Of a DNA stretch of 64,000 nt, positions 48,020 to 61,022 are shown piece by piece (position 1 is the first letter of the stretch; each line of letters begins with the position of its first letter). Both the position numbers and the translations under genes were made by a program. The stretch spans positions 1-64,000 of the IMG/VR virus record IMGVR_UViG_3300043444_000523. One strand, written 5' to 3'. The notes below the pieces were generated by a model. It did not search any database and had not been told where the DNA came from. It was given only the letters and a program-made list of their open reading frames with translations. The stretch is from a virus.

Positions 48020-51000
48020 TTACACCAGATTGTTCTTTTTCAACACAGCCCAGCACTTCGGGAATTTTGCTTTGGCTACATTTGGCTTGGTTATGGCAAG
48101 ACGAACATACTCTGCCCACCCCTCGTGAGCATTAGACATTGCATATGAACTTAGCGGAGCTTTTTTCTCGTCTTCGTGCAGGATTTCAATAACCCATGCT
48201 TTTTTCCAATCAAAATCACTGCTGTAGGACAAATCGCCCAATTTGCCGTCAATAATATGGCCAATCTCATGGGCATAAACGCTGGACATTCTTGTGTCCG
48301 CAAGTTTCCCTTCGTGTTTTATACTCGGCGCGCCGTCAAGAAACATGCCGCCAGAACCAACCTCGACGGCTCCTCCAACTCTACCGTCATTATCCGTCGC
48401 TGTGGATTTTGATATATCTTCAGAAAGCCTCTTTGATGTTGGATAGAACTTCACATGCCGAAGGTTCTTCAAAAGCGAGCCTTTCATCTTTGGATTCATA
48501 CTGGAAATCGTCTTAACAATTCCAGACTTGAACTCGCTCTTGAGGCCATTCGGAATATCCTTGTCTTTGTCTATTGATGAATGAATCGCTGACACAAGAT
48601 CATTGCTGTTCTTTGGATTGGCGGAAATGATATTCCCTTTTATCCACCTGTTTGGGTTTTCTGAAACAGGAGGGCGTGCAAATGCCGCAATTACACCGCC
48701 TACAGCCGCTGACGCTACCGCAGACTTACCAGCAACAACCAGTGCGTGTTCTACAGAATCGCCTAATGCCATATTGCGTACAAATACAAGAGCCCCAGCA
48801 GTAGCAGCACTTCCAAAAGCGCCTTTCAAAAAGTTCACAGCCCTTGCAGTAACAACGCTGTGCCCGTGAGTCATTCCTGGAACTTTTTCTTTTCTAACAA
48901 CAGACGATCTTTTCCCAGGCGACAATGCCGCCTTTTCGCTCGAACTTGCTCTGGCAATCGCTTCTTTGGGTATAAACTCTCCGCCCTTGAAGTGCTCTCC
49001 GCCAACTTCGATTCCGCCCTTGGGGGCATGGACAGCCTCGTATCCAATTGCCTGATTCATAATCGGTGCAATTTGCGCTGATTTCTGGGAGTACGACTCC
49101 AGCGCCCTTGCAACAGCCGGTGCTAACGCGGACGCCTCTGCATTTGCCAGTTCTTCAAGGGCCACTTCGGACACTTGAATGCCACTACGCCGAATGCGGT
49201 TCTTGATCTTGTCCCGAATCCATAGCGATACAGCGCCTTCGCTGTGGCTGTCCGAAGACGGTTTATTGAGCAAATGAACCAACGCATCTCCAGCCACGTT
49301 CTTGGCGACATTTTTGATGTGTGCCCTCAAGTCTTCAGTCGGCTTGGATTCCGGCATTGGCTTTTCGCCGTCGATGCCAGACATGCTGAGCATCAGCGGC
49401 GCATACCGCTCTGCCGCTTCAGATGCCTCGCTCACCAAGTCTTCCTCAGTGGCCTCGATTCCGGCCTCTTTCATGGCCTCTTGCATCTTGCCCTTGAACA
49501 ACTCGACAAGGTATTCGTGCATCACCGCCGAGGCCGGAACTTCATCCTGATAACCGACCATCCACTCGTCATCCTGGCTCGTTACTAAGCTGCCGCCCTT
49601 CTTTTTCATGAGCACGTCGAATAGCTTCGGGATGAGCATCACGCCCTTCTTGATGCCCAACACAGCCAAGTCCATCGTGGCCTGTGTCGCTGCCCGAAGA
49701 GCGAGTCTCTTCAAAGCATCTTTCTCGTTTGGAACCCTAGAAGACTTACCTGTCACCGGGTCTATCACGAGTTTTGTTTCATTAGGATCGATGCCAAGAG
49801 AGATTGCTGTCTTATCAAACGCTCCCTGTGCCAACGGGCTCTTGGCGATGTCTCGCCTCAGTTTCTTAGGGTCTCTGATCATCCGTTCCGCGATCTTGCC
49901 AGCGTACTTGGCCGTCTCGTGAGCCGCCTTCGGCACGCCTCTGAGGCTCTGCTTCTTGTCAAACGCCTTCGACCGATTGCCGGAATACTGGTCGATGATC
50001 CGAAGCGCCATCGTGGCCACGGTGTCTTCGCCAGTGGCTGTAACTTCGCGCTCACGTTGATAAGCCCGACCACGGGCACGGGCATACTCATGCGGCGTTA
50101 GGCTACCGAATTCCTTGATCTTGTTCATCACATATGGCCGAAGTTTGAAGTCCGTCTTCAGCCAACGCTCGGTCTCTTGGATCAAGTCATACTCGTTGCC
50201 CATCAGGATCGGCTCATCAGGCTTCGGAGCCCGAATCCCAGCCTGTTCCAGCATGTCATCGACAGTGGCCGGTTTGTCTTCTTGTTTTTCAGACCTGTCC
50301 ATGCCGGTTTGCTGCGTCTCAGGCTTCTTGCCATGATCCTGCGGCCTGGAAGCAGGCATCTCCGGCACTTTCTCGCCTGAAATCGCCTTCTGGCCAGCCA
50401 ATGCCGCCTTCTCCTCCGGCGATGCGCGGGCAATCACAGAGCCAGGAATAAACTGGCCACCTTCGTAGTGCTTACCGGAAATGTCAATACCACCCACCGG
50501 CGCACGAGTCGCCTTGTACTCAATCGTGAACTCATCATCAGACACCGCCAAATACTCGATCACAAGGCCATCGTTGGCCATCGACACCTGCCCACCCTCT
50601 TCAGGCGGGGCCGGATCAAGAGGAACACTCGTCCCGTCAGCCAAACGAATGTAATTCCCGTCTTCCGTCTCGTCTGTGTTCTCTTCGCCCATGATTTCTT
50701 CAAGTATCTGATCAACCGTCATATCGCTGGCCTCTTCGGCCACTTGCTCGTCCCGCTGGACCTGTTGCTCTTGCTGCTCTTGGGCCGCTTGCTCCTGGGC
50801 TTGCTGTTCCTGTTGTTCCGCTTGCTGCTGCTCTGCGGCTTGTTCTTGGCCCTGTTGCTGCACTTGGGCCTCTTGATCTTGCGGCATCTCTTGAGGCTGG
50901 CCCTCTGCTGGAACTTGCATCTGTTGTTGCGCAGCTGCTTGCTGTTGCTGGGCCTGCATTTGCTGCTGCATCTGGGCTTGTTGGGCCTCCATCTGAATCT

Positions 51001-52459
51001 GCGTTTGCGCCTTGAGCAACTCAATCTGCGTCTCTGTTTGAACCTTGGACTGAACCTTAAGCAACATCTCCTGGTTAAGAATTTCATCGTCAGGCTCAGG
51101 AGCCTTGAGGCCAGCGTTGGCCAAAAGCTCGTCTTTCCTGACAGAGCCGCCCATCTGAAACACCGCCGAAGCATTCTTCAACTTCGCATCGGCCTTTGGA
51201 TCATCAACATCAAATACAAATCTGACCCTGAAGTTGGCCTTGGGGAAATTCCATCGCTGAATTACAGGGATATAATCTTCAGAAAAAGTGTCGGCCAAAT
51301 TGTTTGCGTCAAACTTCAGGATGCGCCATTTAGTGTTCTCATGGAACTGAGATACTCCGCTGCCAAGTCCCGTTGCCTCTGCATTGGCGCTCAAAGTCTG
51401 GCCGATGATCAATCGCTCGATGTGCTGCTCAAAGTATTCCTTGACGATATTGATCAGGATGTTGATGCCGCCGCCTTCAAACCGAAGCAAATCAACACCG
51501 GCGGTATCCTTGCTCTGCCCACGGGTCTTCGGCATTGCGATGGCGTATCGTTCGCCGACGTTTTGGGCTGCGGCCTCGGCTTCTGCCTTGGAATTTGGAT
51601 TGCCTTCATCATAGTAGAACACCATGATGCCACCGATGCTCATCTTCTTCAGGTGGTTGATCGCCCACCCAAGCATCTCGTCACGAAGCTGGAAATTCCA
51701 GTAAATCTGAGACCGCAAGCCAACGCCATGCACGCCGCCTGACATCTCGCCTTCAAAGAAGTCGGCGTCAACGCACTGGTGTTTGTGGATGATGAACCGC
51801 TGCCGCCACTTCGGGTCTTTCAGCCGAAGCACCATCGACCTTTGATCCGAGAAAAGGTCTTCTTCCTTGACGATGCCGCGTTCTTTCAACGTCCGGCCAA
51901 TAGAGTGATTGACCATCACCCTTGGAACATCGTCATGGCCGTACAGGATTTTGTCGCCATTGACCGGCTTGTGCCCGACGACTCCAAGCCGATTCTGGCC
52001 ATCAATCGGAATCGCGCCCCACTTGACCTGATTCGCGTATCGGCCATACCAGATCGCCCAAGCCAGCTGCCAAACGAACGGCGTCCACCGCGACGTATTG
52101 GCCACGATCTTCGACATATCATCAGTTACGGCCTTTTGAATCTTGCTCTTTTGGTTCTCAGGCTCAAGATGCCAGCCAAGAGCCGAAAGCTGAAGGAATC
52201 TCTCGTTCATGCATCCCAAAACGAACGCATCACGAAGCATCGCCAGCGCGTTTTCGCGGCTGTGCTTCGTGGCCTCGTCATGAGTCCATCGATGAGACCG
52301 AGTTACGGATTGATAAATTGATGAGAATGTTCTGTGCTGCGGCAACAGAAAGCCGCCCTCGTCTTCGATGGGTCGGCCATTGTGATCAAGCAGCCGAAGC
52401 GGTCCACTCCCGTTTCGGCTCATCAGGCCATTAACGTCTGGTTCTGGTAGCAGTGCCAT
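48020..52459 (-). CDS. Mu gp29/DUF935-like portal protein fused to a Gln-rich linker, extra modules and a C-terminal zincin (HExxH) domain
   Basis: AIWYG, GVGLRS.IYW, LIIGQTLS, G.GVSQFH...D...L.DT, IQRWNFP; C-terminal YAHEIGHIID...LSSYAMSNAHEGWAE. Confidence 0.85.
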   Translation of the reverse strand: MALLPEPDVNGLMSRNGSGPLRLLDHNGRPIEDEGGFLLPQHRTFSSIYQSVTRSHRWTHDEATKHSRENALAMLRDAFVLGCMNERFLQLSALGWHLEPENQKSKIQKAVTDDMSKIVANTSRWTPFVWQLAWAIWYGRYANQVKWGAIPIDGQNRLGVVGHKPVNGDKILYGHDDVPRVMVNHSIGRTLKERGIVKEEDLFSDQRSMVLRLKDPKWRQRFIIHKHQCVDADFFEGEMSGGVHGVGLRSQIYWNFQLRDEMLGWAINHLKKMSIGGIMVFYYDEGNPNSKAEAEAAAQNVGERYAIAMPKTRGQSKDTAGVDLLRFEGGGINILINIVKEYFEQHIERLIIGQTLSANAEATGLGSGVSQFHENTKWRILKFDANNLADTFSEDYIPVIQRWNFPKANFRVRFVFDVDDPKADAKLKNASAVFQMGGSVRKDELLANAGLKAPEPDDEILNQEMLLKVQSKVQTETQIELLKAQTQIQMEAQQAQMQQQMQAQQQQAAAQQQMQVPAEGQPQEMPQDQEAQVQQQGQEQAAEQQQAEQQEQQAQEQAAQEQQEQQVQRDEQVAEEASDMTVDQILEEIMGEENTDETEDGNYIRLADGTSVPLDPAPPEEGGQVSMANDGLVIEYLAVSDDEFTIEYKATRAPVGGIDISGKHYEGGQFIPGSVIARASPEEKAALAGQKAISGEKVPEMPASRPQDHGKKPETQQTGMDRSEKQEDKPATVDDMLEQAGIRAPKPDEPILMGNEYDLIQETERWLKTDFKLRPYVMNKIKEFGSLTPHEYARARGRAYQREREVTATGEDTVATMALRIIDQYSGNRSKAFDKKQSLRGVPKAAHETAKYAGKIAERMIRDPKKLRRDIAKSPLAQGAFDKTAISLGIDPNETKLVIDPVTGKSSRVPNEKDALKRLALRAATQATMDLAVLGIKKGVMLIPKLFDVLMKKKGGSLVTSQDDEWMVGYQDEVPASAVMHEYLVELFKGKMQEAMKEAGIEATEEDLVSEASEAAERYAPLMLSMSGIDGEKPMPESKPTEDLRAHIKNVAKNVAGDALVHLLNKPSSDSHSEGAVSLWIRDKIKNRIRRSGIQVSEVALEELANAEASALAPAVARALESYSQKSAQIAPIMNQAIGYEAVHAPKGGIEVGGEHFKGGEFIPKEAIARASSSEKAALSPGKRSSVVRKEKVPGMTHGHSVVTARAVNFLKGAFGSAATAGALVFVRNMALGDSVEHALVVAGKSAVASAAVGGVIAAFARPPVSENPNRWIKGNIISANPKNSNDLVSAIHSSIDKDKDIPNGLKSEFKSGIVKTISSMNPKMKGSLLKNLRHVKFYPTSKRLSEDISKSTATDNDGRVGGAVEVGSGGMFLDGAPSIKHEGKLADTRMSSVYAHEIGHIIDGKLGDLSYSSDFDWKKAWVIEILHEDEKKAPLSSYAMSNAHEGWAEYVRLAITKPNVAKAKFPKCWAVLKKNNLV
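49061..49083. promoter_or_regulatory. 23-bp palindromic site, copy 9, in the portal CDS (SAQIAPI)
   Basis: AATCGGTGCAATTTGCGCTGATT, degenerate. Confidence 0.55.
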
Positions 52460-53350: not shown

Positions 53351-53548
53351 TTGTGCCCCTTGATAAAGGAAAGAACCACGCCCCTGAAATACGAAGACAA
53401 ATCGCGGCCAGCAACCTTACGAGCGGCCTTCATCTCCTCTTGCGTGAGGAGAATCTGAAGCCGCTCGGTACGCTTCATGTTTTTAGGCATTGCCGTTCTG
53501 CCGCGTTTTCGCATACTATATCATTATCATAACTATAGAGGATCGGCA

Positions 53549-54568
53549 ATGGTGAATGTCGGCAAACACGAGTTGCACCACGGCAATTGCCTTGACATTC
53601 TCAAGTCCATGCCGGACAAGAAGGTGTCTCTGACACTCACGAGTCCGCCGTATGAAGACTGCCGAACCTACGGCATTGATTTCTCTGTCAAAGGCCAAGA
53701 CTGGGTTGATTGGTTTATCCCCATAGTCATCGAATGTTGCCGAATCACTGATGGCCTAGTGCTTGTAAACGCAGCCGGGAAAGTCCGTGACTTCAAATAC
53801 TCGCCGGTCATGGAATGGCTTGTGGCCGATCTGACACGCAAACACGGCATCGTATGCGGCCCGTCGCCATACGTCTATTACAGAGTCGGAATCCCAGGCA
53901 GCGGAGGCCATCACTATCACCGCCGAGACTGGGAGCCTGTCTATGCCTTCGCTCTTCCAGACCGACTTCCATTGAACTGGTCGGATAATAAAGCCACTGG
54001 CCACAAACCAAAGTGGGTTCCTGGCGGAGAAATGTCATACCGGCTTGGAGACGGCAAACGTGCTAACCACAAATCTCAAGGACGAGACAAGTGGGGAAAT
54101 GCTGGCGAATCATCCGGCGAAGGAAGAAACGCCGATGGCAGCAGAAAGAAGAGGAAGCGATTCGGTGCCAATCCTGAAGGCGACGTAAAAGTCTCACACG
54201 ACAGAGACATTGTTGATATTGCCAACGCTGGCAATCGAATAAGTGAGATGTACGACGCCGACATGGTTAAAAAGCTGCTCGACGACGGAGACGCGGGCGA
54301 CATCGTTCACTGCAAAGTCGGCGGCGGTCTTATGGGGCATCCTTTGGCGTCACAAAACGAAGCCCCGATGTCTCTCACGCTGGCCTCTTGGTTCGTTCGC
54401 AGCTATGCGCCGCCAGGAAGCTACGTCCTTGATCCGTTCATGGGCAGCGGAACTTCTCTGCACGCCTGCCTCGAAACCGGCCGAATCGGAATCGGCATTG
54501 ACATCAGGGAATCCCAAGTGGAACTGACAAAGAGCCGTCTTGAGTCTGTTACACCGTCTATGTTCTGA
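53549..54568 (+). CDS. Orphan beta-class N4-cytosine/N6-adenine DNA methyltransferase
   Basis: HGNCLDIL, LTSPPY (motif IV) ahead of VLDPFMGSGT (motif I), GIDI. Confidence 0.92.
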   Translation: MVNVGKHELHHGNCLDILKSMPDKKVSLTLTSPPYEDCRTYGIDFSVKGQDWVDWFIPIVIECCRITDGLVLVNAAGKVRDFKYSPVMEWLVADLTRKHGIVCGPSPYVYYRVGIPGSGGHHYHRRDWEPVYAFALPDRLPLNWSDNKATGHKPKWVPGGEMSYRLGDGKRANHKSQGRDKWGNAGESSGEGRNADGSRKKRKRFGANPEGDVKVSHDRDIVDIANAGNRISEMYDADMVKKLLDDGDAGDIVHCKVGGGLMGHPLASQNEAPMSLTLASWFVRSYAPPGSYVLDPFMGSGTSLHACLETGRIGIGIDIRESQVELTKSRLESVTPSMF

Positions 54569-55428: not shown

Positions 55429-56049
55429 TTGCCTCTCCGTTCTTCAGAAAGAGCAACCGTGAAGCTACTCTTGAATAACTGGAGAACGCCAGCAACCGGA
55501 TACAAGCTGAAAACACTCGGCTGCGCGTCCATCGTCGCAACCGAATACCCCAAGGGCGTATATCCGATGCACGGTGAGTCCGGCTTCTCAGACTTCCAGT
55601 GCCTCAGTCCGATCCGAATCACCATGCTGGCCATCAATGAACACGTTTCGATGTGGGACGAGCCTCCTCATTGGTACGGCATCCAGCGATGTGCCAGGGC
55701 CATGCACGGGAAAGTCCTTGTCGCTGGCCTCGGTCTTGGCCTAATCGCCCATGCCCTCAAATGGAACAAGGCTGTCCGCGAAATACTGATCATCGAAAAC
55801 AACCAAGACGTTATCGACCTCATCGGCCCCATGTGCCCACGCTCGGCACAAATCGAACACGCCGACTGGTATCGATGGGAAGGCCGATTCGAGCCAGATA
55901 GCGTACTCATGGACTTGGCAGATGGCGATTACACCAAAGAACGTGTGGCCGACGAAACCGAGAAATGCCGACAAAGGTTCCCATCGGCGACAACGATCTC
56001 CGTCCACGGAAGCGTAGAGTCTAGGCAGAACGAGATGAGTGCTTTCTAA
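55429..56049 (+). CDS. Spermidine-synthase-like class I SAM methyltransferase fold protein
   Basis: GKVLVAGLGLG, IIE.NQDVIDL, HAD; start uncertain. Confidence 0.75.
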   Translation: MPLRSSERATVKLLLNNWRTPATGYKLKTLGCASIVATEYPKGVYPMHGESGFSDFQCLSPIRITMLAINEHVSMWDEPPHWYGIQRCARAMHGKVLVAGLGLGLIAHALKWNKAVREILIIENNQDVIDLIGPMCPRSAQIEHADWYRWEGRFEPDSVLMDLADGDYTKERVADETEKCRQRFPSATTISVHGSVESRQNEMSAF

Positions 56050-56111
56050 CAACGAAAGGAGATTTCGTAAACAACCCCACGGCTGAAGCCGGGGGGCTTT
56101 GCCGCTGGGTT

Positions 56112-57185
56112 TTAGCCCGCGACTTTTGGGGCCGGTTTACTGACGGCCCAAGCCCTCAAATTGAGGGCAGCGTTTCGGTCGGCATTTGTGGAGTGCCCGC
56201 AATGTTTGCAGACAAACTCAGACTGGCTCTTTCGGTTGGCACGCTCGCAGTGGCCGCAGACATGGCACGTCTGGGAACTGTATCGCGGGTCAACCAAGAC
56301 TACGGACACGCCTGCCCGTCGGGCCTTGTACTCCACAAACTGCCGAAGCTGAAAGAAACTCCAGTTGCCAAGTCGTCGCCGGAAACGCCTAGAAGCCGTT
56401 TGCTCACAACGGTCACGCAAACCGGAGAGGTTCTCCAGAGCGATACCGATGCCGAGTGTCTTGGCTTTGCCGACAAGACTCTTGCTGATGGCGTGGTTTA
56501 CCCATGCTTGATAGCGGGACTGCCGCCCCGCCATCCGCTTCAACCGTCGCTTGGCAGACTTGGTTCCTTTCCGTTGGTACTGCTTACGGGCTGTCATCCG
56601 GCGCTTGCGGTTTCGTTCGACACCCGCACCGGAGAACGATTCCCCGGTGGAGTCGGTAGCAATCTGGACAATGCCAAAGTCACAACCCAAGTATTCGGTA
56701 ACCGGCTGTGGGTCGGAAACGGTCGCCTTGACTTGAACATGCAGAAAGTAACCGCCATCGCGTTTGACAAGTGCAGCGCTGGTCGGAACCTTCCCCGCAA
56801 GCGCGGTTCGCTGAAAGTCGCCAAGTTGGGTCGTCAGTCGATGCCGCCCATGCAACAGGGTCAGGCTGAAAGTCCAGTCGGATTCTCGGAAGGAAAAGAT
56901 TCGAGCATCGTAGTTCACGCTCGTAGGAGCAAATCGGGAGAGGTCTTTTACGGCGGCAACGCGACCGATGGCACGAACGGCCAGATTCGCCGACAGCCCG
57001 AACGCAGTCCGCGTTTCGCGGTAGGCCAATTTGTGCAGAGCGAGATGTCCTTTAGTCTCTGTCTCTGCCGCACGACGAACCAAGTGATTGCACGCCGCAG
57101 CGAAAGCCACAAGTGTAACGTCGATTTCAACCGCCTGTTCAGCGGTCGGAACCAGCTTGCAACAGATGGTACGGATGGCTTCCAT
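56112..57185 (-). CDS. tnpB: TnpB RNA-guided endonuclease
   Basis: RuvC D-E-D (LGCDFG, IALENL, NADRNAALN) and zinc finger CHVCG/CKHCG. Confidence 0.93.
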   Translation of the reverse strand: MEAIRTICCKLVPTAEQAVEIDVTLVAFAAACNHLVRRAAETETKGHLALHKLAYRETRTAFGLSANLAVRAIGRVAAVKDLSRFAPTSVNYDARIFSFRESDWTFSLTLLHGRHRLTTQLGDFQRTALAGKVPTSAALVKRDGGYFLHVQVKATVSDPQPVTEYLGCDFGIVQIATDSTGESFSGAGVERNRKRRMTARKQYQRKGTKSAKRRLKRMAGRQSRYQAWVNHAISKSLVGKAKTLGIGIALENLSGLRDRCEQTASRRFRRRLGNWSFFQLRQFVEYKARRAGVSVVLVDPRYSSQTCHVCGHCERANRKSQSEFVCKHCGHSTNADRNAALNLRAWAVSKPAPKVAG

Positions 57186-57578
57186 TCAGACACCCTTCTG
57201 GTTCTCGATGTACTGCTTGATAACGGCCAGAGGCGCGCCGCCAACAGTCGCGACAAAGTAGGAGTTCGTCCAGAGCGATGGCAACCGGCTACGCAACGCT
57301 GGGTACTCCGTGCGCAGGAACCGGGACGAACGGCCCTTGACCAACTTTATCAGCCGGTGGATTCCGAACTGTGGATCGACTTCAACGAGCAGATGTACGT
57401 GATCGGGCATCACTTCCATCTCGATCAGTTCCGAACGGGTTTCAAGGATCACTTCCCGAATCAGATTCTTGAGCCGTTCATCAACGCCGTCGATCAAGAC
57501 CTTGCGACGATACTTGGGGCAGAAAACAACGTGGTACTTGCAGCAGTAGGACACGTTGTTATTGCTCTTGAGCCTCAT
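57186..57578 (-). CDS. tnpA: IS200-type Y1 HUH transposase
   Basis: YHVVFCPKYRR, DHVHLL, LWTNSYF, IKQYIENQ. Confidence 0.95.
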   Translation of the reverse strand: MRLKSNNNVSYCCKYHVVFCPKYRRKVLIDGVDERLKNLIREVILETRSELIEMEVMPDHVHLLVEVDPQFGIHRLIKLVKGRSSRFLRTEYPALRSRLPSLWTNSYFVATVGGAPLAVIKQYIENQKGV

Positions 57579-57684
57579 TCCTGTATTATACACGTCCGAG
57601 ATGTCGAATGCCACCTCAGTAGCGTGGATTCGCCGTCTCCATTCCTCCCCATGCCTGAAGGCAGGGGTTTCTTGGAGACATTTC

Positions 57685-57780
57685 ATGAACAGCAAAGCCA
57701 AATTTTGGTTTGTGTTCGCTATTGTGTCTTCATGCTTTTGTGCGTTCTTATTCTCAATCTACTCATGGAAAGTCTGGTAG
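57685..57780 (+). CDS. 31-aa single-TM protein, target gene of the IS insertion
   Basis: MNSKAKFWFVFAIVSSCFCAFLFSIYSWKVW; its original AAAGGAG RBS is left at 56055-56061. Confidence 0.55.
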   Translation: MNSKAKFWFVFAIVSSCFCAFLFSIYSWKVW

Positions 57781-57795
57781 TGGCTCAACATGGTG

Positions 57796-57823
57796 TTGAC
57801 AACCTGGACGACCCTGATAGAGT
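57796..57823 (+). promoter_or_regulatory. Promoter TTGACA-16-(TGn)TAGAGT for a leaderless tnpB
   Basis: GTG start 7 nt after the -10 box; no SD. Confidence 0.6.
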
Positions 57824-57830
57824 TATCCTT

Positions 57831-59006
57831 GTGCTGAAAACGATTACCTATCGTCTGTACCCGTCGCGGGAGCAGGAATCTTTCCTGTTCTACTTCCTCT
57901 ACATTGGCCGCAAGATTTACAACGACGCACTTGCCGAGCGCGTCCGGTTCTACAAAGACACTGGCAAAAGCCTGACTAAATTCACGCAACAGATGGACCT
58001 GACGATACGCAGGTCAATTAGCCCGGTGCTTGCCTCTGTCCCTGTCTGGATTGAGCGAGACTCCCTGTCTAGGATAGACAAGGCATTCGCCAATTTCTTC
58101 CGCAGAGTAAATGAAGGGAGTGCCAAGCCTGGGTTCCCGCGATTCAAGTCAGCCAATCGCTGGAACAGTTTCTCAATGCCTATCCAAGGCAGTGGCAAGA
58201 AACTGGTGCAAGGAAATAGAATCCGCGTGGCCGGGATTGAAGGAACAATGCCAAGCCGTGGCGGGCAACAAATACTTGGAAAGATCATTGTCCAGAGAAT
58301 TGTTCATCGAGCAGGCAAGTGGTTCTGCAAGTTCGTAGTTGATGACAAACTCGACCCACCGCCTATTCATCCTGTAAAGTCGGCTATCGGCGTCGATGTT
58401 GGTCTGAAATCGTTTGCAACGCTTAGCAACGGTTCAACGATTGAGAATCCACGATTCTATCGGGGACTGGAACTCAAGCGTGCCCATCGCAACGTGTCTC
58501 GTAAAATCAAAGGCAGTCGGAACCGATGGAGAGCCGTTCGTCGTCTTCAATCGGTTTATGAGAAAGTCAGAAACTTACGCCACAATTTTACGCATCACGA
58601 GAGCAAGAGGATTGTCAATGACCACCAACTGATTGTTGTCGAAAAACTGAACATAGCTGGCATGGCCAGAAGCCGATTTGCCAAAAGTATCTTGGACGCT
58701 GCATGGGGTCGGTTCATATTTCAATTGCGTTACAAAGCTGAAAACGCTGGTTGCGCATTCGTTGAAGTTGACCCCCGTGGCACAAGCCAAGATTGCAGCA
58801 AGTGCGGCCAGACCGTGCCAAAGAAGTTGTCGGATCGTGTCCATAAATGCTCTTGCGGTCTCGTGCTAGACCGCGACCATAATGCGGCGTTGAACATCCT
58901 TCAGCGTGCCGTTCGATCAGCACCCGGCCCCGGTAGGTGGATCGGTAAAGCGTGTGGAGAGGCTACGAAGACTCGGCGAAACACGAAGGCTTCAACACCA
59001 TGTTGA
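57831..59006 (+). CDS. tnpB: Stand-alone TnpB (IS1341/IS607-like)
   Basis: YRLYP, GFPRFKS, IGVDVGLK, IVVEKLNI, TSQDCSKCG, DRDHNAALNI. The 5' part of ORF 56193..59006 is only antisense to the IS. Confidence 0.9.
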   Translation: MLKTITYRLYPSREQESFLFYFLYIGRKIYNDALAERVRFYKDTGKSLTKFTQQMDLTIRRSISPVLASVPVWIERDSLSRIDKAFANFFRRVNEGSAKPGFPRFKSANRWNSFSMPIQGSGKKLVQGNRIRVAGIEGTMPSRGGQQILGKIIVQRIVHRAGKWFCKFVVDDKLDPPPIHPVKSAIGVDVGLKSFATLSNGSTIENPRFYRGLELKRAHRNVSRKIKGSRNRWRAVRRLQSVYEKVRNLRHNFTHHESKRIVNDHQLIVVEKLNIAGMARSRFAKSILDAAWGRFIFQLRYKAENAGCAFVEVDPRGTSQDCSKCGQTVPKKLSDRVHKCSCGLVLDRDHNAALNILQRAVRSAPGPGRWIGKACGEATKTRRNTKASTPC

Positions 59007-59096
59007 GCCACTACCGAAGTGTTCTACAATAGGCGTCATTCGCATGTACGAGCGATAGGCAAGCCGAAATGCTTGAGAAGAAGAAAGGAAACAACA

Positions 59097-59711
59097 ATGG
59101 TTCGTAAAATTGGAAGAATCCAGTTCCCGGTTTTTTCTGGAATCCGCTGTTTGATGCTCCCTTATATTCAAGGAGATTCAAAAAGCGTCCCGCATGAGTA
59201 TGGTCATGGATACGAATCAATACTCGACGACCTTTATGTCAGGAAAGGGGACATCGGGTTTTTGACAATTGACGAATCAATTGCTCATTCTGGATCGCCG
59301 CATCGCGGAGCGAGAGCCAAGCATGGACGGGCATTGCATACAGAGGCAGGTCGTCATCCAGACATGGTGTACGCCTGGGGTGGCGGGAATTGGGGCGGCT
59401 CCAATAGAACAACGCTGAGCAGAGATGTTAAGGTTCTCATTTCAAACAGCATCGACAAGACTTGCGCTGTTTGGGATGCAGAGCATGAAAACACTACCAT
59501 TGACGGGGACATTGGGTATTTGAGTGATCGTTATCCTTACGATTCTGCGATGTTCATGATGGCCGGTGAAGTGTACGAGATCGGAATCCTGACTCCACAC
59601 GAAAGCCTTCCAGTCAACCAAGACACAAGGCGGCAGTTTATTCGCATTGTGTCGTCTGGGGTGAATGGAAGAGAGCCGTATTTTACCAAGAACAGGCTTC
59701 TTGATTACTAG
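59097..59711 (+). CDS. Putative 2OG-Fe(II) dioxygenase-like protein
   Basis: LHTE...PHESLP...RQFIR pattern; AAAGGA RBS. Confidence 0.5.
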   Translation: MVRKIGRIQFPVFSGIRCLMLPYIQGDSKSVPHEYGHGYESILDDLYVRKGDIGFLTIDESIAHSGSPHRGARAKHGRALHTEAGRHPDMVYAWGGGNWGGSNRTTLSRDVKVLISNSIDKTCAVWDAEHENTTIDGDIGYLSDRYPYDSAMFMMAGEVYEIGILTPHESLPVNQDTRRQFIRIVSSGVNGREPYFTKNRLLDY

Positions 59712-59720
59712 GTTGCCAAA

Positions 59721-59958
59721 GAAATAGGCGCAACTCGCGCCTATTTCCGCCTCCCCCACAGGCTGACCTTCTTTTCGTCTCTTCGGGGCGGCTCGTCTGG
59801 TATACTTGCAGGCGAGCCCCTCTGTCCCCTGCCTCCGATGCCGATCCGTGCGCCCATCGTCTGGTCTGTTCGTGATGCTCCGGTTTCTATGCCAGCTAGT
59901 GAAGCAACTCCGAAGTCGGCATGGAAGTGGGCCAGATTGAATGCGTCCATGCCGTCTG
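59721..59958 (-). pseudogene. Inverted copy of the terL 3' end (last 71 codons + stop + palindrome copy 11 at 59723-59745)
   Basis: Aligns without gaps to 62939-63176 with about 25 mismatches. Confidence 0.9.
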
Positions 59959-60027
59959 ACAAGCGAAAGAAACAGCACAAGTTCAAGTGCAGACGATGCC
60001 ACAAAAAGGCGTTCCTAGAAGAGCCAA

Positions 60028-60564
60028 CTACTTCGGCCGAGGCTTACTGGCCGCAATCTCAGCCTTGACATTCTTATGGCGCTCTTCCAAGGCTTTGTGC
60101 TCTGGAGAGTCGTATCGGTGCATCTGCTTCTGCAGCTTCAACCAACGGCACTCTTTGTCAGGGCTTGCAAAATCTGGGAAACTCAAGCCGTCCCACTTTT
60201 CTCCCTGTTCGGCCCTGTTGACAACCTCATCATCCCAAGTCCTGTATTGCGACTTCAGCTTTTCTTTGTCCCTGGCAATCGTTGTTGCCGGATCATGCAG
60301 CGTAGAAACAACGTAGTATGTCACGATCTTCGTGAGGCCGCCTGAACGCTTCTCGGCAACGAACACGCCGCCAGTCGGCTTGTGATACCTGTGCTCGATG
60401 TCGCTTCGGTTGTTCTTCTGAGACGGGACCATGTTCTTGTCAAGTTTTGACGACTCAAGATATGCCGAGATGATTTCTTTGGCGTCTTCGTTTACAAAAG
60501 ACGCGGCCCTCTCGACCCATCGATCATACGCATGGTTGCTTACACTGATTTTTGAACGGTCCAC
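60028..60564 (-). CDS. Hypothetical protein with a possible RelE/BECR-like RNase-fold N-terminus
   Basis: VSNHAYDRWVER...FV......IVTY. Confidence 0.4.
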   Translation of the reverse strand: MDRSKISVSNHAYDRWVERAASFVNEDAKEIISAYLESSKLDKNMVPSQKNNRSDIEHRYHKPTGGVFVAEKRSGGLTKIVTYYVVSTLHDPATTIARDKEKLKSQYRTWDDEVVNRAEQGEKWDGLSFPDFASPDKECRWLKLQKQMHRYDSPEHKALEERHKNVKAEIAASKPRPK

Positions 60565-60610
60565 AACATCCCCTTAAAAAGAATCGCCCCTGCAAGCAGG
60601 GGCATAAAGG

Positions 60611-60946
60611 TCACACCAGTTCCAGAATCCTTCGCGCCTGTTCACGCCCCATCTCGTTGACCGCACTCTTCATGGCCGCAACGTGACCGGCGTAGTCGAT
60701 TGGCCTCGGCGGATCAATTGGCCCGGTGGTATACGAAGTCACAAGGCGGAACGACTTCTTGGCTCCGTCTTGTTTTGGCTTCCCATTCTTGATGATCGAC
60801 TTGTACGTTGACACCTGAGCCAACGTGGCCTCGACACCGCTCTTGGAGCAGTATTCGACGATCTTCTGATTGTCCGTGATGCCGTCCTTGATCGCTTGCC
60901 GAACCATCCCCATCCGAGACGGCTTCTTCTCTTTTGCCTTTGACAT
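60611..60946 (-). CDS. Hypothetical basic protein, possibly DNA-binding
   Basis: GAGG RBS; QVSTYKS helix. Confidence 0.55.
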   Translation of the reverse strand: MSKAKEKKPSRMGMVRQAIKDGITDNQKIVEYCSKSGVEATLAQVSTYKSIIKNGKPKQDGAKKSFRLVTSYTTGPIDPPRPIDYAGHVAAMKSAVNEMGREQARRILELV

Positions 60947-61022
60947 GCATACCTCTTGTTAGAAACGGGACCAAACACCATTATCATGATACTGGATGTG
61001 ACACGCCGCGTCTATAACTCAA

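Follow-up and report, generated by a model that had tools for sequence, protein, structure and literature searches.

A probable tnpB-only mobile element with 24-bp inverted ends in a phage genome, its right end apparently built into the omegaRNA scaffold

The window analyzed here, the first 64,000 nucleotides (positions 1 to 64,000) of the 104,736-base IMG/VR phage record IMGVR_UViG_3300043444_000523, carries a tnpB gene, tnpB1 (57831-59006, plus strand, from a GTG to a TGA codon), whose 391-residue product is an ISDra2-like RNA-guided nuclease. The gene is bracketed by two inverted copies of a 24-nt sequence: the left arm (57776-57799, plus strand; GGTAGTGGCTCAACATGGTGTTGA) lies upstream and contributes its inner four nucleotides (TTGA) to the start of the -35 box of a predicted promoter, and the right arm (58992-59015, plus strand) contains the stop codon of the gene. 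An earlier note on this DNA took the right copy for a guide that directs the nuclease to its own promoter. We instead consider it likely, if short of certain, that 57776-59015 is a compact, non-autonomous mobile element of 1,240 bp, hereafter IS-Y, which comprises only tnpB and its omegaRNA between 24-bp inverted ends and is inserted in the phage genome.

The protein itself is a conventional member of its family. Its Pfam domains are HTH_OrfB_IS605, OrfB_IS605 and Cas12f1-like_TNB (the PF12323, PF01385 and PF07282 set), and its best natural match in the PDB is the ISDra2 TnpB (8EXA/8H1J; E=3e-50, residues 4-363, with the D-E-D residues conserved). An alignment of 18 homologues has the catalytic residues D189, E271 and D349 of the RuvC domain invariant, along with C322, C325, C340 and C342 of the zinc finger (CxxC...CxC); thus, the OrfB_IS605 and TNB domains, the D-E-D triad and the zinc finger expected of a TnpB are all present, and the earlier observation of an intact triad holds. 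Given this triad, TnpB1 is, as judged from its sequence, not a TldR, i.e., one of the TnpB-derived repressors. In a tblastn comparison with phages the top match to TnpB1 had 42% identity.

As the earlier note had claimed, the two arms are perfect reverse complements (24/24), and the repeat overlaps the promoter: TTGACA (57796-57801) shares the last four nucleotides of the left arm. The inverted identity covers exactly 24 nt without a mismatch and breaks off sharply at either side; hence, a second, outward-facing scaffold at the left end, which we had entertained as a candidate, was rejected. Within the window the 24-mer has only these two copies at up to three mismatches (none expected from 100 shuffles), and the whole record holds no copy besides the two arms. 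Outside the record, the exact 24-mer found no match in viral contigs, Rfam (in E-value mode) returned no family for 56500-60500, and a megablast of 56000-61000 against GenBank phages gave no match. Each arm also contains the previously noted TCAACA-N3-TGTTGA palindrome, which forms a hairpin placed 9 nt from each tip and is extended at the right end (GGCT(T)CAACA..TGTTGAGCC). The statement that the locus lacks insertion sequence (IS) hairpin ends was therefore mistaken, as the arms themselves carry the end hairpin. On the other hand, we agree that there is no target duplication: the flanks read AAAGTCT| ... |GAAGTGT.

What the right arm represents turns on where the omegaRNA scaffold ends. By alignment with three tnpB1-related loci (L266, L256 and L255) and others, the conserved 3' part of the scaffold spans 58917-59015 on the plus strand (TCAGCACCCGG..GGTAGG..GATCGGT..TGTGGAG..GGCGAAACACGAAG) and closes with a terminal hairpin (58988-59009), seen in the RNA fold, and the linker CACTACC (59009-59015); the right arm thus corresponds to most of this hairpin plus the linker. 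Across the wider family the tnpB tail has a recurrent plan, namely GAAG, a hairpin and about 9 nt, after which the copies diverge (for example, ...GGGAGGTAGTTCAC| in six related loci, each continued differently). In the subgroup nearest to tnpB1 the tail ends ...hairpin-(N)CACTACC|, and GAAG, a hairpin of variable sequence and CACTAC(C) are found in the window and eight relatives with unrelated flanks. In the alignment of these nine tails (the window, L266, L256, L255, L258, L269, L088, L290 and L103), T129, C134, A135, C136 and T137 are invariant and similarity ends afterwards; since only these positions are invariant, L255 going on with TTC (CACTTTC) and L103 ending in ACT, the shared core is CACT. 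The comparison with L266, whose TnpB is 54% identical, is instructive: about 100 nt of scaffold are held in common (TCAGCACCCGGC..GGTAGG..GATCGGT..TGTGGAG..GGCGAAACA.GAAG), the hairpins differ (GGCT(T)CAACA-CCA-TGTTGAGCC in the window versus CCAC-GACGT-GTGG in L266), and CACTACC comes next in both. The RNA fold leaves ACUACC single-stranded after the terminal hairpin, and in nine out of nine sequences (the L290 segment being taken from the alignment) an upstream GGUAG(G) or GUAGUG is available for pairing with the terminal (C)ACUACC; this pairing is likely to constitute a pseudoknot of the scaffold.

Because the scaffold ends at CACTACC (59015), the entire 24-mer belongs to it and no guide-target relation arises. 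Judged by these alignments, 58992-59015 is scaffold and right end of the element rather than guide, and the guide begins at 59016, the first position past the conserved scaffold, in phage flank (putative guide region 59016-59035, plus strand, GAAGTGTTCTACAATAGGCG, of presumed length). A guide would be expected 3' of the scaffold and to vary with the flank; the variation begins at 59016 and not within the 24-mer. In the window the guide-region sequence GAAGTGTTCTACAATAGG has a single match at up to three mismatches. Searches with the scaffold-end pattern GGCGAAACANGAAG..CACTACC in viral contigs returned no match, and those for an association of the hairpin and CACTACC motif with Y1 tnpA loci no informative one.

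These observations dispose of the headline of the earlier note. It held that the scaffold ends at TTCAA (58996) and is followed by the guide CACCATGTTGAGCCACTACC, such that TnpB would bind over its own -35 box (with TGTCAA, read on the other strand, as the target-adjacent motif, TAM) and repress or cut its promoter. The perfect 24-nt complementarity that overlaps TTGACA speaks for such a scheme, as does the existence of TldR repressors derived from TnpB (PMC13565253). However, its premise, a scaffold that ends at TTCAA, fails: the 24-mer lies inside the conserved scaffold, the divergence in the eight relatives coming only after CACTACC. A true guide would moreover vary between copies and would have no mirror inside the element, and with D189, E271 and D349 intact a self-matching guide would be self-destructive. 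In the related locus L256, too, it is the end of the scaffold that is mirrored. We accordingly give hardly any credence to a guide against the gene's own promoter.

If the right arm is a scaffold end, the question becomes why it is mirrored on the left. Relatives of tnpB1 with accompanying DNA were gathered by profile scans of viral, genome and metagenome contigs, with counts referring to the matches listed. Among these, the closest are L266 (54% identity, partial), L255 (46%) and L256 (45%), with all others at 46% or less; a scan with the homologue P0024 brought nothing close among relatives. The pair L255 and L256 is 80% identical over 1,269 nt and unrelated outside, with the common block starting 3-5 nt before the left arm and ending within 5 nt of CACTACC. 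The L256 left arm (ACGGTAATGGTCAAGTTTGAC), once reverse-complemented, agrees with the right end of the same element at 20/21 positions, loop included, even though its hairpin (GGTCA-AACT-TGACC) is unlike that of the window; the corresponding matches are 14/16 in L255 and 21/27 in L290. Scored against one another, cognate arms reach 24.5, 19, 12 and 11.5, versus 6.8 on average and at most 11 for non-cognate pairs. Hence, the left arm co-varies with the right end of its own element and, given the borders of the L255/L256 block, travels with the element. It is on these grounds, together with the recurrence of the architecture described below, that the fallback of the earlier note, a tnpB cassette bounded by terminal inverted repeats (TIRs), finds support.

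The same loci weigh on two readings in which the arms are not element ends. In the first, the element would be only 57800-58991, inserted in the middle of a 48-bp perfect palindrome of the phage (…GGTGTTGA|TCAACACC…), and the arms would be target DNA. The arms when joined do yield a perfect palindrome with TTGA|TCAA at its center, and IS200/IS605 elements favor single-stranded, hairpin-prone DNA. Against this, the right arm has the family-conserved hairpin and CACTACC, the left end would amount to just 31 nt devoid of a hairpin, and L255 and L256 bring their own arms into unrelated flanks; a palindromic target is thus extremely improbable. The second reading, the invertible alternative of the earlier note, envisages a phase-variable cassette whose 1.2 kb, bounded by the arms, are flipped by a site-specific recombinase. 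A promoter-bearing segment between perfect inverted repeats is indeed what such a switch would look like; yet no recombinase domain was detected among the neighboring genes scanned, the same architecture occurs as a discrete insertion in unrelated genomic contexts, and inversion would part the omegaRNA from its flank-derived guide. We found no support for it and regard it as scarcely credible.

The architecture extends beyond the closest relatives. An exact-match survey of 144 relatives found no inverted match longer than 14 nt, and the distribution equaled the null. In a mismatch-tolerant survey of 198 loci, 165 of them tnpB-only, with the cut-off at the 99th percentile of the null, non-palindromic inverted ends were present in 16 of the 165 listed tnpB-only loci (about 10%) versus 1.3% expected. 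Among these 16 are other clades with ends of their own, GGGAA...TTCCC in L260, L265, L273 and L196 and GGGC...GCCC in L297, and the outer edges of the arms in these clades coincide with the point at which the tails diverge. Beside 14 loci with inverted ends we found neither a Y1 tnpA nor a recurring transposase family.

Several of these loci deserve a brief description in their own right. L260, L265, L273, L196, L297 and L118, from metagenome or genome contigs, are compact tnpB-only elements of 1.15-1.23 kb with imperfect terminal inverted repeats of 20-32 nt, the left arm stopping 3-32 nt short of the start codon and the tip of the tnpB tail serving as the right arm; their left flanks are A-rich (TAAA-like), and there is no target duplication. 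L118 (139-1143) and L265 (6-344) have a second tnpB or a fragment of one directly upstream, as in the window, which suggests that TnpB elements cluster at permissive sites.

In the window, this neighbor is a separate and complete IS605-type element on the minus strand, here IS-X (56067-57684, borders by analogy with related loci). It pairs a Y1 tnpA (57186-57578; Pfam Y1_Tnp, E=3e-42) with an intact tnpB2 (56112-57185; 357 residues), the two genes being coupled by TGAATG, and has a left-end hairpin at 57647-57667, a tnpA promoter at 57585-57614 and a right-end hairpin at 56075-56096, all on the same strand; its ends lie 17 nt 5' of the left hairpin and 8 nt 3' of the right one. The entire record has one tnpA and two tnpB genes only. 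We considered whether tnpB1 might be the divergent partner of this tnpA and rejected it: in 80 of 80 viral loci whose TnpA is related (52-76% identity), tnpA has a co-directional tnpB behind it and never a divergent one, and about 40 of the 80 display hairpins like those of IS-X (CCCCTGCCTTCAGGCATGGGG some 90 nt before tnpA, or CCCCCCGGCTTCAGCCGTGGGG after tnpB), which match the tnpA-tnpB2 unit. The IS-X hairpins, of the form CCCC..TTCA..GGGG, are unlike the TCAACA-CCA-TGTTGA of the tnpB1 arms, and the left 24-mer arm lies about 90 nt outside IS-X. Therefore, tnpB1 belongs to a separate, transposase-less unit arranged head-to-head with IS-X. The earlier description of a stand-alone TnpB is right in that the tnpB1 element has no transposase inside it; it missed the Y1 tnpA and tnpB2 directly to the left.

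This proximity bears on a further reading, that the left arm has no function and is what by chance is left, as a solo right-end fragment, of an older copy in the opposite orientation. IS605-family elements do cluster and decay to end-only remnants (PMC3119063), and a second insertion sequence lies just 90 nt away. A remnant would, however, hardly account for an identity that is perfect over exactly 24 nt with abrupt ends, or for the constant spacing between arm and start codon in independent relatives; we hold it to be very unlikely.

The DNA between the two elements provides one further check on the borders of IS-Y. A hydrophobic 31-codon phage open reading frame (ORF; MNSKAKFWFVFAIVSSCFCAFLFSIYSWKVW, 57685-57780, plus strand) lies between IS-X and IS-Y. 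IS-X is inserted between its ribosome-binding site (AAGGAG, about 56057) and its ATG (57685), with the left end of IS-X offering a replacement GGAG, and its TAG stop is supplied by the first bases of the IS-Y left arm. When 57775 is joined to 59016, the reading becomes GTC T|GA, with a stop at the junction one codon earlier than the TAG. A stop that falls exactly at this join fits element borders at 57776 and 59015.

On the other side, an outward-facing hybrid promoter-like site, TTGAGC-16-TACAAT (59003-59030, plus strand, 9/12 matches), takes its -35 from the right arm and its -10 from the phage flank; it may possibly be a hybrid promoter created by the insertion sequence. It faces a phage gene at 59097-59711 (phrog_8970, unknown function). 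A mechanical open frame of 937 codons (56193-59006, plus strand) lies antisense to tnpB2 and tnpA and extends in frame into tnpB1; it probably reflects codon usage and is not a gene, since tnpA and tnpB2 share one frame without TTA, CTA or TCA codons. The phage context just upstream of the two elements includes a 1,479-residue protein (48020-52459, minus strand), of which only residues 73-447 make up a Mu-type portal domain, and, on the plus strand, a DNA methylase gene (53477-54568) and a methyltransferase-like gene (55429-56049).

The left arm also has to be considered as part of a control region. The predicted tnpB1 promoter, TTGACA-16-TAGAGT (57796-57823, plus strand; sigma70-like, 10/12 matches), ends 7 nt before the GTG, and the spacing TTGACA-16-TAnnnT-7-GTG is identical in the window, L256 (TATGCT) and L255 (TATGGT). 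This shared exact spacing argues for a real promoter and for a leaderless message, whose transcript, as we infer from the sequence, would start at or beside the GTG. Hence, one may ask whether the repeat serves an RNA-level or operator function rather than transposition. At the RNA level, the left arm in read-through transcripts would pair with the 3' end of the omegaRNA and disable it, thereby insulating the element; as an operator, the same hairpin at both ends would be bound by TnpB or a host factor that regulates the promoter. The position of the arm at -55 to -31 of the promoter with conserved spacing, its complementarity to the omegaRNA hairpin and the probable pseudoknot strand, the upstream ORF (57685-57780) that reads into it and the lack of any transposase partner found are all consistent with such functions. 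Yet, the left arm of other clades is placed at -3 to -41 and stands in a different relation to the promoter, and the outer arm edges coincide with the element boundaries, as termini would show. A regulatory or RNA-pairing role of the left arm is possible; that the repeat exists for it in place of transposition seems to us unlikely.

How, then, does IS-Y compare with known systems? According to published descriptions (PMC3627910, PMC4810608, PMC13565253), the IS200/IS605 family has no terminal inverted repeats, and neither do its tnpB-only members of the IS1341 type, whereas symmetric inverted terminal repeats have been reported for TnpBs associated with DDE transposases and for solo TnpBs that share such ends (Altae-Tran et al. 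2023, PMC10691335). With the IS1341 or "IS605B" group IS-Y shares a single tnpB of about 390 codons with an intact RuvC triad, which is the sole gene in 57776-59015, with no transposase inside; an omegaRNA that overlaps the 3' end of the gene; a right end made of GAAG, a hairpin and a short linker followed by a flank-derived guide; and the absence of a target duplication. TnpB1 is also 30-40% identical to the co-directional TnpBs of Y1-associated relatives. It departs from IS200/IS605 elements, which are described as having asymmetric ends and direct-oriented subterminal hairpins, in the 24/24 inverted identity that reaches the tips and comprises the loop and the 9-nt flank, and in a left end of only about 55 nt that doubles as promoter; such mirrored ends, at odds with the asymmetry of the IS1341 group, recur in L256, L255 and L290. 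With the DDE-associated TnpBs it shares the plan of TnpB and omegaRNA as cargo between inverted terminal repeats, the 3' end of tnpB near the right terminus, and a mobilization presumed to occur in trans. Unlike them, it lacks a target duplication, as do L255 and the other clades; the record yielded no DDE transposase whose ends match, nor does a DDE gene recur near the 14 relatives; and its right arm is built as a Y1-type hairpin and linker. The likeness to TldRs, a TnpB-family protein brought to a promoter by an adjacent guide RNA, is one of idea only: the triad is intact, the promoter-matching sequence is scaffold, and the gene stands in the frame of a mobile element. The textbook IS605/IS608 case is the neighboring IS-X, from which the hairpins set the tnpB1 element apart. 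In sum, the tnpB1 element fully fits neither the IS1341-group nor the DDE-type description.

Taken as a mobile element, IS-Y might work as follows. The right arm is the 3' end of the omegaRNA scaffold, with CACUACC probably engaged in a pseudoknot and the flank from 59016 serving as the guide, and the left arm an inverted copy of the right terminus at the left tip, whose inner bases provide the -35 box. By analogy with ISDra2-type TnpB, the TnpB1-omegaRNA complex would cleave the allele without the insertion (...AAAGTCT|GAAGTGTTCTACAATAGG...) in a genome that is co-infecting or has lost the element by excision, where the target would consist of a TAM in the left flank and then GAAGTGTTC...; recombination after the cut could copy the element back or spread it, which in a phage would amount to homing between co-infecting genomes. 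The symmetric ends are most likely recognition sites, hairpin plus 9 nt, for a transposase acting in trans. The geometry of hairpin plus 9 nt is that of a Y1-type right end, which the right arm displays on the top strand and the left arm on the bottom strand. The neighboring Y1 TnpA is unlikely to be the mover of IS-Y, because its own end hairpins differ.

A number of points weigh against IS-Y being such an element. It is single-copy in the record, and a search for an empty site found none, the downstream gene having six viral relatives without synteny and the upstream gene none. The borders in the window rest on analogy with relatives of 45-54% identity and on the ORF argument, leaving room for an error of 0-3 nt; TnpB homologues at 55-67% identity are known as proteins alone. 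Three or four of the eight members of the CACTACC subgroup (L088, L269, L103 and perhaps L258) have no detectable inverted left arm, which means that this arm is not obligatory. The analysis brought to light no transposase whose ends match those of IS-Y, and the role of the symmetry is the weak point, given that IS200/IS605 elements are described as lacking TIRs and that a Y1 transposase acts on one strand.

A bolder proposal, which we advance tentatively and regard as rather doubtful at present, is that several clades of ISDra2-like tnpB-only elements form a set in which the usual asymmetric left end has been replaced by an inverted copy of the omegaRNA/right end, which would produce genuine TIRs in the absence of a target duplication and imply an undescribed form of symmetric end recognition. 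If true, one option would be that two identical "right ends" are nicked, on opposite strands, by an HUH/Y1 enzyme, and another an end recognition tied to the terminal hairpin of the TnpB-omegaRNA complex; the same arm would also be a promoter and possibly an operator.

What is lost in this analysis is the idea of a natural, active TnpB guided to its own promoter; what is gained is a testable anatomy, with element borders, scaffold end, guide start and promoter. For users of TnpB as an editing tool, the scaffold end in this subfamily would be …hairpin-CACUACC. More generally, a minority of tnpB-only elements appear to carry co-varying terminal inverted repeats, the right one of which is built into the scaffold of the guide RNA. 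This bears on the means by which TnpB elements without a transposase, of which there are very many, move or persist, with homing between co-infecting phage genomes being plausible in the present case.

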